Below are positions 20,560 to 44,810 of a stretch of DNA of 64,000 nt, piece by piece. This DNA comes from Alphaproteobacteria bacterium (GTDB taxonomy: Bacteria; Pseudomonadota; Alphaproteobacteria; GCA-2731375), in assembly GCA_016776605.1 (NCBI GenBank), contig JADHTB010000010.1, positions 8,727 through 72,726 of the forward strand, given 5' to 3'. Under the pieces are notes generated by a model that was not told the origin of the DNA, ran no database searches, and saw only the letters and a program-made list of their open reading frames with translations. How positions within the stretch are numbered: position 1 is the stretch's first letter; each line of letters starts with the position of its first letter. The translations under genes and the position numbers were made by a program.

Positions 20560-20722
20560 CCCTGGGGCCCGTCAAAATCAGCGCCAAATACGTTGCTTGT
20601 GTGCATGGCCGCAACCTAGAGCAGATCCGGGATATTGTGAACCATGGCCAAAAACCATGCCCAAAAACGATGACCAGAAACGATGGTATGGTGGCGAATT
20701 CGCGCATGGCGTAAACTGCTGA

Positions 20723-22702
<1,980 letters not shown>

Positions 22703-34232: not shown

Positions 34233-35948
34233 CTAGGGACCGGAGCCGACCGTGTTGTCCGTGTCGTCCGTGTTGTCGGTCTTAGGCAGCAATTGCGCCC
34301 GCAGGAACTCGGCATTCAATTGAATGTTGCGGCGCACCTGTCCAATAGGCCCCAAGGCGCCCAACGCCTGACCATCCACTATGATTTCGATTGCCCCGGC
34401 ATTGCCGGTCATCAGCACCAAATCGTCGCGGTTCGGGGCGTGATAACTATCACCGGCCCGCAGCATGCGGGTCAGAAGTAATTCATTATTCGCGCCCTGG
34501 ATCTGGACCCAGGATTCGGCGCGCGCGCGCAATTCCACCCGGGAATTGCGGTTCGAGGCGCCATAGACCTGTGGAGGATAGCTCAGGGCACCAGACGCCG
34601 CGGCCTGGGATGCCGGGGATGCCTGCTGGCCCACGGCGCCGTCGGAAGCACCTTCGCTTGCCGCTTCGGGCAAAGCACGGGCCGGCGCCGATGGTGCGGC
34701 GGGCGGCGGCGGCGGGTCGATAGCCGCCTGGACCGATGGCGGGACCGACGGCTGGACTGGGGCGGCCTTTACATCACCGCCCTCACCCAATGACGCGGCG
34801 GGTTGGGCTGCCGTAGATCGGGCTGCCGTGGATTGCGGTACCGCAGATTGGGGCACGACAACTTGCGGCGCCACGGGCTGCGCCTGCGCGGCGTCTTCCA
34901 AGATCACGGGGATCACGGGCGCGGTGCGAACCTCGACCGCCGGCTTAGCGGTGCTGACCATGGCATTTGGCGAAACCGGTGAGGTTGAAGCATCAGCCGC
35001 CGCCAAATTCGCGGCTGCCGGCATATCCCCGATGCTGACGCCGGCGTTCGCCTTGACCGTCGCGGCAGGCGTCTTGGCGGCTTGTTCGCCTTCACCAGAC
35101 CCTGACGTCACCGTTGGCGCGGCCTGGCCCACGGCCTCCGGATTGGCGACTGTAGCTGCCAGGTTTGCGACGGCTCCAACATTCGGTGTTGCCGCCGCCG
35201 CATCGTTATTGGCCACGGCATCGTTATCAGCCACGGCATCGTTATCAGCCACGGCATTGCTGTTAACCGCATTACTATCAACAGCTATCTGCTCAGCAGC
35301 GGCCTGGCGCGCGGGCTCGGGTGCGGGAACGGACGGCGCAACGGCCACATTGGCTGTGTCTGCCTTAGGGGCAGTGTCCGCGGTATCCGTCGCCGCCTGA
35401 TAGGGTGTAAAGCGTTCCGGCGGTTCAGCCACCACTTCAATTGGCAAAAGCCCCTGCCGCTCCAGGAAAATCCAACCACCGTAGACCGCACCCGCCAACA
35501 GCAATGAGACCAGCGCCAACCGCAAGCCCGGGCGTCGGGCCTCGTCCAGCGGTTCCGGTATAACGATACGGCGTTCTACCGGAACAAGGGTCGCCTCGCG
35601 CTTGAACTGGCGGATAACCTCATCGCCATCAAGTCCAAGAAATTCACTGTACGTGCGGAGGAAGCCGATAGCATAGGTCGGCCCTGGCAAACCATCAGTG
35701 CGGCCCTCTTCCAACGCCAACAAATGCGCCTGTTGGATACGCAGCTCGCTTGAAATTTCCGCCAGGGAAAGCTGCCGCCGTTGCCTCTCGGCCCGCAAGT
35801 TGGTGCCTACGCCGCTGTAAACCTCCACGTCACCCGATTCCACGATCTGTTGCAAGTGCAGGCCACGCCCATTCCCGCGCCGCCGGCTATCCTTGCCGCC
35901 CTGTGGTTCCTTCCCAGGCAATTCATCCATAATATTTGGATCAGTCAT
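34233..35948 (-). CDS. rodZ: Cytoskeleton protein RodZ (HTH-XRE domain, single transmembrane segment, long low-complexity periplasmic linker, DUF4115)
   Basis: N-terminal HTH (LRAERQRRQLSLAEISSELRIQQAHLLALEEG), a transmembrane segment, an Ala/Pro/Val-rich linker with tandem NDAVAD repeats, and a C-terminal DUF4115-like domain. Confidence 0.8.
   Translation of the reverse strand: MTDPNIMDELPGKEPQGGKDSRRRGNGRGLHLQQIVESGDVEVYSGVGTNLRAERQRRQLSLAEISSELRIQQAHLLALEEGRTDGLPGPTYAIGFLRTYSEFLGLDGDEVIRQFKREATLVPVERRIVIPEPLDEARRPGLRLALVSLLLAGAVYGGWIFLERQGLLPIEVVAEPPERFTPYQAATDTADTAPKADTANVAVAPSVPAPEPARQAAAEQIAVDSNAVNSNAVADNDAVADNDAVANNDAAAATPNVGAVANLAATVANPEAVGQAAPTVTSGSGEGEQAAKTPAATVKANAGVSIGDMPAAANLAAADASTSPVSPNAMVSTAKPAVEVRTAPVIPVILEDAAQAQPVAPQVVVPQSAVPQSTAARSTAAQPAASLGEGGDVKAAPVQPSVPPSVQAAIDPPPPPAAPSAPARALPEAASEGASDGAVGQQASPASQAAASGALSYPPQVYGASNRNSRVELRARAESWVQIQGANNELLLTRMLRAGDSYHAPNRDDLVLMTGNAGAIEIIVDGQALGALGPIGQVRRNIQLNAEFLRAQLLPKTDNTDDTDNTVGSGP
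35194..35265. repeat. Four imperfect 18-bp tandem repeats inside rodZ (GCCACGGCATCGTTATCA)
   Basis: Direct repeats visible in the DNA; they encode AVADND-type repeats in the RodZ linker. Confidence 0.8.
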
Positions 35949-41649: not shown

Positions 41650-42762
41650 TCAGGCCGTGGCCGCGATCACGGTGTCGGCAGTGTCGCCGGCACGGTCCGT
41701 GGCTGCCGCGGGCTGGGCCCAGACCGCGATGGGGCCGCTGGTCGGCAGGGCGCGATCGTAGCTGTATTCCCAGTTCAATGGATCCGAAAACAGTTTCCGC
41801 AAAAGCTGATTATTGCTGCTGTGGCCGGTACATTGACCCGCGAAATGCGCCAACATCGGCCCGCCGGCAAGGTAAAAATCACCGACGCAGTCCAATACCT
41901 TGTGGCGGACGAATTCGTCGTCATAGCGCAGACCGCCTTCGTTCATGATTTCGTCGTCCCGGCCAACCACCACGACATTGTCCAACGAACCGCCTTGGCC
42001 CAAACCAAGATCCATTAAGCGGTTAACCTCATGCTCGAAACCAAACGTACGGGCACGGCAAATATCTCGTTTGAAACCGCCGTTATGCAGATCGTAAAAG
42101 CCGGATTTTTCCACAATCGCGGGACTGTCGAAATCAATCTCCAGCGAAACCGAGAACCCATCCGAGGGCACCAATGCGGCCCGCCGTTTGCCGTCCTCGA
42201 TCTCTACCCGGCGCAGAACGCGGATCCAACGGCGGCGCGCCTGCTGCGGCGCCAGACCTGCACATTCGATCAAAAACACGAATGGCGCCGAAGAGCCATC
42301 CATGATGGGCACTTCCGGGCCATCCAATTCAACCCGGACATTATCGATGCCGCACCCGGCCAGCGCCGCCATCAGATGTTCAACAGTGCCCACCTTCACC
42401 CCGGCGTCATTTTGCACCGTGGTTGACATGACCGTGTCGCTGACCGTATCCCAGCCTGCCCGGACGTCGGCGGCACCCGGCGCGGCATCCGCACCAGTAT
42501 CCCCGCCAATATCCCCGGGAGCATCTTTAGCTATCCCTAAGGCAGCTGCACGAATATCGGTGCGGTGAAAGACGATACCCGTATCAGCCGGCGCCGGACG
42601 CAGACACATGGCGACCTTAATGCCGCTGTGCAGGCCCACGCCTGAACAGTTGATCGCATTCTTCAGCGTATGCTGCTGCCTGAGCGTATGCTGCTTTGGG
42701 TCCACGTCTTCAATCCGCTTCAAACTTAACGACCTATTCAAATTTAACGTCAAACTTAACAA
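41650..42762 (-). CDS. lpxC: UDP-3-O-acyl-N-acetylglucosamine deacetylase with a low-complexity insertion and a C-terminal extension
   Basis: GVGLHSG, GTVEHL and ARTFGF LpxC motifs in the correct order. There is an extra Gly/Asp/Ala-rich insert of about 20 aa after HRTDI and a C-terminal tail of about 25 aa. The start is uncertain and probably lies downstream of 42762. Confidence 0.85.
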   Translation of the reverse strand: MLSLTLNLNRSLSLKRIEDVDPKQHTLRQQHTLKNAINCSGVGLHSGIKVAMCLRPAPADTGIVFHRTDIRAAALGIAKDAPGDIGGDTGADAAPGAADVRAGWDTVSDTVMSTTVQNDAGVKVGTVEHLMAALAGCGIDNVRVELDGPEVPIMDGSSAPFVFLIECAGLAPQQARRRWIRVLRRVEIEDGKRRAALVPSDGFSVSLEIDFDSPAIVEKSGFYDLHNGGFKRDICRARTFGFEHEVNRLMDLGLGQGGSLDNVVVVGRDDEIMNEGGLRYDDEFVRHKVLDCVGDFYLAGGPMLAHFAGQCTGHSSNNQLLRKLFSDPLNWEYSYDRALPTSGPIAVWAQPAAATDRAGDTADTVIAATA

Positions 42763-42764
42763 CT

Positions 42765-42854
42765 TGTCCGAACGTTTGCACTTGTCCGAATGTTTGCACT
42801 TCTCTGAATGTTTGCACTTCTCTGAATGTTTGCACTTCTCTGAACGTTTTCACT
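42765..42854. repeat. Five 18-bp direct tandem repeats (TGTCCGAATGTTTGCACT variants) in the ftsZ-lpxC intergenic region, immediately 5' of lpxC
   Basis: Units at 42765, 42783, 42801, 42819 and 42837. They are preceded by 2 x CAAACTTAAC. The apparent coding potential on the plus strand is a repeat artefact. Confidence 0.85.
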
Positions 42855-43049
42855 TCGCTTCGACACCCGCATCCACCAGTCGGCTTCTTCGAGCAAAGGC
42901 GCCAAATCGAATTATCCTTAAAAGAGAACACCTTGGGTCAGGTTATTAGCAACCCATCCCAAGATGCTCAAATCAAACTTTATTACATTTCATTACGGCG
43001 CCAATCCGGCGAAACATAGTTAACCCAGTGGGCTGACGCCGCCCATGCC

Positions 43050-44810
43050 TTAGTTAGCCTGCCGGCGTAGAAATGACGGAATTTCAAGTAGATCCTCCTC
43101 GGTTTGCGGCGGCGCCAGGGGCCGGGTCGGCTCTAAGGGCGCCGTCTCCGGCGCGGAGGCCAGGGTTTGTCCGCCGGCCGCCGGCGTAGCGGGTGGCGTG
43201 GTCTCCATAGTGACATCGGGGGCTGTCTCCCGGCGCATTTTTTCCGGAGTGGGCGATTCGAACCTGGGTTGCACCTGGGCCGGTGGCGCCGCCGATGCCA
43301 ATTCGGGCGCTTCTTTACGCCGGAACAGGGAAAAGCCCCGGGCCTTACGCTTGGCCGGCTGATCCGTTGGGTTCAGGGCTTCTGCTTCCGCCAGGGGGTC
43401 GGGTTGACGCAGCAAGCTACGGTCCCTCTCCGGCCGGCTGGCGGGCGGCGCGATAAAAGGTCCGTCTTCTACACTGACATCGACCGTCTGTTGCGGCCGC
43501 GGCGCCACGGGCTCGGGCTCCGCCTGGGGTGGTTTGGGCGCCGGGACCCGCTGGCCGAAGGTCAAGGGCAAGGGCAAGGCCGGTGGTGCTTCCATCGCGG
43601 CTGGCGGCACCTCCGTAATGGTTTCGGGTACGGCCTCGGCGATGGTTTGCACCGCCGCGGCGACCGCCGCCGCGGCCTCGGCTTCCGTTTCAGCCGGGCT
43701 TTCGGCAGCCGGCAGGGGAGACAATTCAGGCGCGGCGACCTCTGGTGCGGCCTCCATAGGCGCCACGGCCGTCTCGCTCGAGATTGGGCGTCCGGCCACG
43801 GCGGCCAGGCGTGGCGACGTGATCAGCGGGCGCTGAGCACCTTCTTCAATCTCAATTCCAGTTGCCACGACAGAGACCCGCATGCGCCCATTCAGGCTGT
43901 CATCCAGCGCCGATCCAACGATAATGTTCGCATTCGGGTCGACTTCCTGACGGACCCGGTTGGCCGCCTCGTCTACCTCGTACAGGGTCAGGTCCATGCC
44001 ACCGGTGATGTTGATTAAGACGCCACGGGCTCCCTGCATCGAGACATCATCAAGCAACGGATTCGAAATCGCTGCCTCGGCCGATTCGATGGCGCGGTTT
44101 TCGCCTTCCGCCTCGCCCGTGCCCATCATGGCTTTACCCATCTCCGCCATAACCGTTCTGACGTCGGCGAAGTCCAGATTGATCAGGCCGGGCAGGACCA
44201 TCAGATCGGTGATGCCACGGACACCGGAATGCAACACGTCGTCGGCCATGGAGAAGGCATCGGCGAAGGTGGTTTTTTCGTTGGCGATCCGGAACAAATT
44301 CTGGTTGGGAATAACAATCAGGGTATCGACGAAGGATTGCAGCTCTTCAATGCCGCGTTCCGCCGACAGCAGACGCTGTCCGCCTTCGAATTGAAATGGC
44401 TTGGTCACCACGCCCACGGTAAGAATACCCTGGGCCCGCAAGGCCTCGGCGATGACCGGCGCGGCGCCGGTGCCGGTGCCGCCGCCCATGCCAGCAGTGA
44501 TGAAAGCCATATGCGTGCCTGTCATATGATCGAGAATCTGCCCGATGGCTTCTTCCGCCGCCGCGCGGCCAACGTCCGGCCGGGCACCACAACCCAGGCC
44601 CTGGGTGATGCTCGCGCCCAACTGGATGCGCCGTTCCGCCTTGCTATGGGACAAGGCTTGGGAATCCGTATTGGCGACGATAAAATCGACCCCCTCCAGG
44701 CCGGAGGAAATCATATTGTTGACAGCGTTGCCGCCGGCACCGCCGACGCCAATCACCACAATACGGGGTTTCAGTTCAGTCAATTGCGGGGCATTTAGGT
44801 TGATGGTCAT
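43050..44810 (-). CDS. ftsZ: Cell division protein FtsZ (long Pro/Ala-rich C-terminal linker)
   Basis: GGGTGTG tubulin signature and the N-terminus MTINLNAPQ...[17 protein letters not shown]. Confidence 0.97.

Follow-up and report, generated by a model that had tools for sequence, protein, structure and literature searches.

The genes ddl-ftsQ-ftsA-ftsZ-lpxC-DUF2889 follow one another in the 64-kb stretch of DNA analyzed here (the window). On the minus strand, ftsA occupies positions 46227-44977 and ftsZ positions 43050 to 44810 (586 aa; TIGR00065, E = 2.3e-121). A 345-nt spacer that holds a repeat array, here called array A, separates ftsZ from lpxC (41650 to 42705, minus strand; TIGR00325, E = 9.6e-84), which has a conserved GTG start at 42705-42703. 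lpxC is an essential lipid A gene, and LpxC is the committed enzyme of lipid A synthesis. The spacer is AT-rich, with a GC content of 45% compared with 62% for the window.

The repeat array and its surroundings

Array A consists of five 18-bp units arranged head to tail on the minus strand at 42765-42854, as read directly from the region 42400-43200. On the gene strand the unit has the form AGTGCAAACATTCAGAGA, and the units are AGTGAAAACGTTCAGAGA, AGTGCAAACATTCAGAGA (twice), AGTGCAAACATTCGGACA, and AGTGCAAACGTTCGGACA. The five head-to-tail repeats were found exactly as the preliminary description had quoted them. They are contiguous and have no unique spacers between them, which agrees with its exclusion of a CRISPR array. 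Tandem Repeats Finder placed the array at 42762-42856, with a period of 18, 5.3 copies, 93% matches, no indels, and a score of 141, the highest among the 36 rows returned for the window. A search with the consensus unit gave five matches, at 42765, 42783, 42801, 42819, and 42837, with 0 to 3 mismatches each, compared with 0.01 expected from shuffles. Outside the array, no match to the unit was found within the 64 kb at ≤3 mismatches.

Two other tandem repeats of the window were noted. A 13-bp repeat (AACCATGGCCAAA; 3.6 copies, 85% matches) at 20640-20686 lies about 37 nt upstream of an AMP-binding/acetyl-CoA-synthetase-like ORF (20723-22702, plus strand). A coding 18-bp repeat (3.2 copies, 95% matches) at 35200-35257 specifies AVADND hexapeptides in the linker region of a RodZ-like protein with HTH_25 and RodZ_C domains (ORF 36008-34233, minus strand).

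The same five units were present in two further contigs. An ENA contig (L089) was 100% identical to the window over 6.8 kb, and a GenBank metagenome contig (L087) differed at 11 of 2,935 bases (99.6% identity) and had the five units unchanged. L087 is the sole independent near-identical assembly, as L089, being 100% identical, may be the window's own source. Judging from L089 and L087 together, an assembly artefact, which had been raised earlier as a possibility, is ruled out.

A second repeat family, family B (GTCGTTAAGTTTGAA-like), lies between array A and lpxC at 42719 to 42763 on the minus strand. Its three copies, at 42763-42749, 42751-42737, and 42733-42719, have a layout of 18+12+18 nt. 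The two copies of CAAACTTAAC reported previously belong to family B, viewed from the opposite strand; the family has three copies in the window. The B motif matched the window four times, compared with 0.44 expected, and three of the four matches fell within family B.

Three candidate starts were considered for lpxC: the TTG at 42762 of a mechanically called ORF, the TTG at 42723-42721 of the public gene call (357 aa, P0001), which is that of contig L089, and the GTG at 42705. In two relatives (L093 and L097), stop codons lie between the TTG and the GTG, and the GTG is therefore the sole start usable in all relatives. It has no good Shine-Dalgarno site. The array was initially described as abutting the lpxC ORF, which is true solely for the mechanical ORF from TTG 42762; the distance from the end of the array is 60 nt to the conserved GTG and 42 nt to the public TTG, so that 42 to 60 nt separate the array from the start codon. 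An extension of the LpxC N terminus through the repeats was considered and rejected, as unit 1, read in the frame of lpxC, is interrupted by a TGA and none of the units offers a start codon. In L099, a TAA lies inside a B unit in the lpxC frame.

Within lpxC, a third duplication (duplication C) was found at 42661 to 42693 on the minus strand. It covers codons 5 to 15 and consists of CAGCATACGCTCAGG followed by CAGCAGCATACGCTGAAG, encoding KQHTLRQQHTLK. In the two sister lineages introduced below, the same feature is an 18-nt duplication (KQQHTLRQQHTL), from which one CAG has been lost in the window. Duplication C is common to the window and both sister lineages and is absent from all other lineages compared; LpxC relatives at ≤88% identity have a single KQQHTLK.

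Other length differences were seen in the LpxC proteins of this clade. P0008 has an independent, similar duplication (KQQKTLQHTLK). A length-variable, low-complexity insert is located at about residues 55 to 95 (P0001-P0009 and P0121-P0125), and the C-terminal tail is variable with short repeats, e.g., GANAGANAG in P0003 and NAASNAASNAA in P0007.

A conserved block at 42916 to 42991 on the minus strand delimits, on the upstream side, the variable leader in which array A lies. This block comprises an invariant 25-mer at 42991-42967 (GAAATGTAATAAAGTTTGATTTGAG), a 16-bp hairpin at 42969-42926, and a T-run at 42927-42916, and it resembles a terminator. Its conservation exceeds that of the flanking genes, and it was seen in each of the 24 clade loci and in 0 of 79 more distant lpxC loci. 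No Rfam match was obtained for it. The block may act as the terminator of ftsZ, as a 3'-UTR RNA, or as an attenuator of lpxC. In one relative (L095, positions 752-2080; ENA ERZ28763718 ctg124000), an inserted DDE_Tnp_1 transposase gene separates the ftsZ stop from the conserved block, and the otherwise near-identical locus L094 has no such insertion. That lpxC in L095 tolerates this IS between itself and ftsZ suggests that a promoter of its own lies downstream of the insertion site.

Copy number among relatives and origin of the array

For comparison, 12 distinct lineages of one clade of uncultured marine alphaproteobacteria were assembled from three sources, namely, metagenome contigs found with the conserved spacer 25-mer as a probe, LpxC homologues together with their contigs, and the 90% LpxC cluster of the window. 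By LpxC, the best genome match was an uncultured marine alphaproteobacterial MAG with 82% identity, and all other genomes had ≤56% identity.

Array A is absent from most of these relatives. At 74 to 84% DNA identity to the window, L090, L093, L094, L096, L001, L083, and L085 have one copy of a related, partly conserved motif (RTGCRAAYATTYGSAY) and no array. The single copy is located about 17 nt upstream of a conserved TAAGTTTGAAGCGGATTGAAGACGTG, i.e., TA(A)GTTTGAAGCGGATTGAAGACGTG. Single copies were also deduced for the closest outgroup, an 88% relative (P0002), from its N-terminally over-extended protein. The two sister lineages (L099 to L105) have about 91 to 93% DNA identity and about 95% LpxC identity to the window and are species-level lineages distinct from that of the window. 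They have two A units, ATGAAAACATTTAGAGAA and then GTGCAAACATTCGGACAA. Five A units were found only in the lineage of the window among the lineages compared.

Family B also differs among these three lineages. In the sisters, the B repeat (GTCGTTAAGTTTAAACAA) has a clean 18-nt period and follows the A units in phase. Two B copies are present in L103 to L105 (three JGI samples) and four in L099 to L102 (one NCBI and three Logan assemblies), compared with about three in the window. The previous suggestion of a VNTR is supported at the scale of lineages, as the copy number at this one locus differs among related genomes (1, 2, or 5 for A; 2, about 3, or 4 for B). The hypervariability that had been proposed with it was not seen: the within-species comparison covered the two contigs L089 and L087, and both had five identical units, including the near-identical but not fully identical L087. 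In the more distant relative represented by L097 and L098, an unrelated 13-bp tandem repeat with two copies (CAACTTTAAGAAC) lies in the ftsZ-lpxC spacer (L097, positions 2381-2405; L098, positions 264-288), and an extra segment of about 130 nt with long inverted repeats directly follows ftsZ.

The individual units allow the growth of the array to be followed. Unit 1 of the window matches the distal unit of the sisters, and units 4 and 5 match their proximal unit. Units 2 and 3 are composed of GTGCAAACATTC plus AGAGAA, i.e., a proximal-type (lpxC-proximal) head and a distal-type tail, and the sister lineages carry just the two parental A units. Units 2 and 3 are chimeras of these two, as would be expected of an out-of-register exchange or replication slippage followed by further duplication. 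Between the window and the sisters, the spacer has about 95% identity outside the repeat zone, where a single 1-nt indel, located just ahead of unit 1, is the only length change. Inside the zone, all indels are multiples of 3 (+54, +36, +12/-6, and -3). Because the units match those of the sisters in this way and the spacer is about 95% identical outside the zone, the history read from the alignment starts from one copy, which became two in the ancestor shared by the window and the two sisters and five in the lineage of the window only.

A, B, and C are three adjacent duplications with one 18-nt period. Repeat-driven length change is common in and around lpxC of this clade. Array A is very probably a minisatellite born by slippage and derived from local sequence. 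The explanation as a whole, in which array A is a young, lineage-specific minisatellite in the AT-rich lpxC leader, is neither an operator array nor a folded RNA, and acts on lpxC, if at all, in cis via that leader, has about an even chance of being correct. As part of such a leader, the array would lengthen the stretch from the terminator-like hairpin of ftsZ to the lpxC start by 54 nt that are purine-rich and unstructured. The array could also lie upstream of the lpxC promoter and outside the mRNA.

Possible upstream reading frame, regulator sites, and RNA structure

The repeat zone is spanned by a candidate upstream ORF (uORF) at 42734 to 42853, which would be read on the minus strand in the -1 frame with respect to lpxC. 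It runs from GTG 42853 to TAG 42736-42734, with the predicted product (M)KTFREVQTFREVQTFREVQTFGQVQTFGQVVKFDVKFE. Frame -1 is open through all A and B units from the start in unit 1, which is GTG in the window and ATG in both sisters; the uORF start of the single-copy relatives is also ATG. Homologous ATG/GTG uORFs of at least 10 codons were found in 10 of the 12 lineages and were missing in L097 and L082.

The ancestral stop of this frame, a TGA at 42710 to 42712 on the minus strand, lies 4 nt before the lpxC GTG. The sisters have TAA at this position, and L090, L001, L083, and L094 have TGA; the change leaves the stop intact. The uORF stops 4 nt before the GTG in L090, L001, L083, L103, and L099 and 16 nt before it in L094 and L085. 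In the window, an in-frame TAG ends the uORF eight codons early, about 28 nt before the GTG and 10 nt before the TTG. The stop is lost in L096 and L097 (and, by one tally, L093). Frameshifts of +1 occur in L094, L085, and L093; that in L094 ends the uORF before the ancestral TGA.

Several comparisons bear on whether frame -1 is translated. In its favor, the length changes in the zone, being multiples of 3, leave frame -1 open, and the exchange of TGA for TAA retains the stop. Between the window and L103, eight changes are silent and five are non-silent in frame -1, compared with three and nine in each other frame, a contrast based on about 13 sites. In L099, frame -1 is the sole frame open across all four B units. 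Across unit A all three frames are open, and an open frame there is uninformative. Comparisons between paralogous units gave no frame preference. The sequence before the uORF start (gtgtcgaagcgaa-GTG) has no GGAG/AGGA core of a Shine-Dalgarno site, in contrast to the clear sites of ftsZ and ftsA. The predicted peptides are MKTFREVQTFGQVVKFKQVVKFEAD in L103, MKTFREVQTLGQVVKFKQFVKFKQAVKFEQLVKFEAD in L099, MQIFAQVGKFEAD in L090, and MRIRRRVSKFETD in L001. Deeper relatives show little conservation of the peptide; their changes fall mostly at first and second codon positions, and many second-position changes separate the last two peptides. No homologue of it was found among 5.8 billion proteins, and a literature search returned no paper linking lpxC to a uORF or to tandem repeats. 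A longer ORF of 65 aa (42931-42734) was considered as a gene and rejected, as the 1-nt indel upstream of unit 1 breaks its frame in the sisters and it has no homologue. Antisense ORFs across array A also had no protein homologues.

Translation of the upstream frame, with coupling to lpxC, is possible although doubtful. The uORF would begin at the first A unit and would normally stop 4 nt before the lpxC GTG, and ribosomes ending it could start again at this GTG, which is not preceded by a good Shine-Dalgarno site. The expansion of array A would lengthen the uORF by 18 codons. The fuller proposal, which is tentative, is that the clade has a translated uORF, ancestrally of 13 codons (M-Q-I/T-F-G-Q-V-G-K-F-E-A-D), that would feed ribosomes to lpxC and in which arrays A and B would be in-frame hexapeptide expansions ([E/Q]-V-[Q/V]-[T/K]-F-x).

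A different explanation would need no reading of the repeat at all. The array could be a purely neutral, non-coding VNTR that arose by slippage in a permissive ftsZ-lpxC spacer and whose copy number has no effect on lpxC. The array does lie in the part of the spacer that varies most across lineages, no motif, structure, or homologue was found for it, near-identical strains share a stable copy number, and the window holds other tandem repeats. However, the amplified module includes the most conserved element of the stretch (TGC.A, invariant in 10 lineages). The restriction of indels in the zone to multiples of 3, next to an outside indel of 1 nt, also argues against a purely neutral origin, as do the excess of silent changes in one frame and the one period common to three adjacent duplications. 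Weighed together, these observations make it somewhat unlikely that the array is entirely neutral and non-coding. In itself, the expansion of array A may well be nearly neutral.

The array had originally been interpreted as iterated binding sites for a regulator of lpxC. According to this explanation, each unit would bind a transcription factor of lpxC, e.g., an envelope-stress regulator, and five units would give stronger or cooperative control. Transcription of lpxC depends on NtrYX and ChvGI in other alphaproteobacteria (PMC12444477), and the motif is at a fixed distance from the lpxC start. The single-copy motif is also an imperfect 14-bp dyad, with six of seven positions paired in L090 and five of seven in L093, L094, L096, and unit 5 of the window; about 2% of background 14-mers score at least five of seven. 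In units 2 and 3, however, the dyad is lost, with a score of three of seven, which is the background level. The putative ChvI motif TTGC-N3-GCAA (PMC9731502) and the motifs CAA-N3-5-TTG, TTAA-N7-TTAA, and GANTC, i.e., ChvI, NtrX, CtrA, and CcrM sites, are absent from array A and the variable leader, and GCC-N8-GCC occurs once, in the far conserved block. In Rhodobacter sphaeroides, NtrX does not bind upstream of lpxC (PMC7240162). The A motif matched the window six times, compared with 5.2 expected, five of the six matches being in the array, and it was not found elsewhere in the 64 kb as a recurring site; the B motif likewise did not recur elsewhere in the window beyond chance. The regular 18-bp phasing, which had been taken as a sign of regulator sites, speaks against them, as 18 bp is out of helical phase and places successive units on different helix faces. 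A set of iterated operators is thus quite improbable, and array A probably has no dedicated binding protein.

Structured RNA, such as a riboswitch, a thermometer, or an hmw-like hairpin, was also considered and rejected on the basis of the fold scores of shuffled sequences and the lack of an Rfam match. The leader with array A folded at -45.8 kcal/mol, compared with -54.9 kcal/mol for shuffled sequences (z = +2.09), and 198 of 200 shuffles folded as well or better. Array A by itself had a folding z of +0.87, and no Rfam family matched in the spacer at E ≤ 1. We infer that array A is neither a set of operator sites nor a folded RNA.

Two conserved patches, RTGCRA and TA(A)GTT, are separated by about 17 nt in nine to 10 lineages (spacing measured by eye), and RTGCRA-N17-TAAGTT could, with low probability, be a weak promoter, in which case the ATG would be coincidental. 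A related and very improbable reading is that the array is a reiterated promoter element. RTGCRA would then be a -35-like hexamer of the proximal lpxC promoter and TAAGTT its -10 element, and the expansion would place spare -35 boxes and upstream DNA behind a single working promoter (unit 5 and the first B copy, with the 17-nt spacing kept). In its favor, the two patches flank a variable spacer in 10 lineages, a promoter is required for lpxC beyond the terminator-like hairpin, and an IS element upstream of the conserved block is tolerated in L095. Against it, TGCAAA and TAAGTT resemble the sigma-70 hexamers poorly, a consensus scan of 42400-43300 found no promoter-like site, the spacer between the patches is itself moderately conserved, and both boxes are missing in L097 and L082.

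Relation to known systems and significance

Bacterial intergenic minisatellites or VNTRs of the MIRU-VNTR type resemble array A in their head-to-tail units of tens of base pairs, their differing copy number among related genomes, their origin by slippage or unequal exchange, and their frequent location near gene starts. For Mycobacterium tuberculosis, change in tandem-repeat copy number has been described (PMC12817950), and VNTRs have been reviewed (PMC3899988). Array A differs in that its variation lies between species-level lineages only and its host is an uncultured, free-living marine alphaproteobacterium. It is also derived from a locally conserved single-copy motif and not from a dispersed repeat family.

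In the iteron and tandem-operator arrays, direct repeats of about 18 to 22 bp are shared with array A. Iterons lie at replication origins, where a dedicated initiator with a nearby gene binds them. In contrast, array A has no such initiator or origin context, and its units degenerate away from the dyad.

Leader peptides coupled to a downstream gene include TrpL, PheL, and ErmCL, encoded by trpL, pheL, and ermCL. The candidate uORF is similar to them in having a start codon in the leader, a stop 4 nt before or overlapping the main start (for the candidate, 4 nt before it in five lineages), and a weak main ribosome-binding site. It differs from them in that it has no Shine-Dalgarno site and no attenuator or terminator alternative, and its peptide is poorly conserved, with some frameshifts. 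Expansion of a leader peptide by hexapeptide repeats is, to our knowledge, not a described feature.

The 5'-UTR heptamers of Haemophilus influenzae hmw1A likewise form a tandem repeat between an upstream control region and a start codon, and in that system the repeat number can tune expression in cis via the leader (PMC12721329). The hmw repeat has a 7-nt unit in at least 11 copies, is transcribed, forms a long hairpin that is cleaved by RNase III, and varies at high frequency (PMC12721329). In contrast, array A has five 18-nt units, lies in a leader that folds worse than shuffled sequences, and no variation of it was observed within the population. With five units of 18 nt, it also falls outside the simple sequence repeats of contingency loci, which have units of 1 to 9 nt in many copies.

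LpxC is controlled by FtsH/LapB proteolysis in enterobacteria, by MurA activation in Pseudomonas, and by NtrYX/ChvGI-dependent transcription in some alphaproteobacteria. The known modes of LpxC control are thus proteolytic, allosteric, or transcriptional (PMC12444477). The NtrYX/ChvGI control of lpxC (PMC12444477, PMC7240162, and PMC9731502) likewise concerns an alphaproteobacterial lpxC that is the last gene of the dcw cluster, but array A and the variable leader contain no published ChvI motif. In R. sphaeroides, the effect of NtrX on lpxC is indirect (PMC7240162).

The present analysis removes the reading of array A as an array of operators and corrects the gene start and the strand. As reconstructed from the aligned lineages, the birth and growth of this minisatellite is an ordinary evolutionary process, with three stages (1, 2, and 5 copies) seen in wild marine populations, and array A is a tidy example of such growth rather than a surprise. 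A repeat that alters the lpxC leader could in principle retune the expression of this essential gene between lineages. If the upstream frame is indeed translated and coupled to lpxC, the repeat number would set the length of a leader peptide and thereby the translation of lpxC, which would be an undescribed translational layer in the control of lipid A synthesis.
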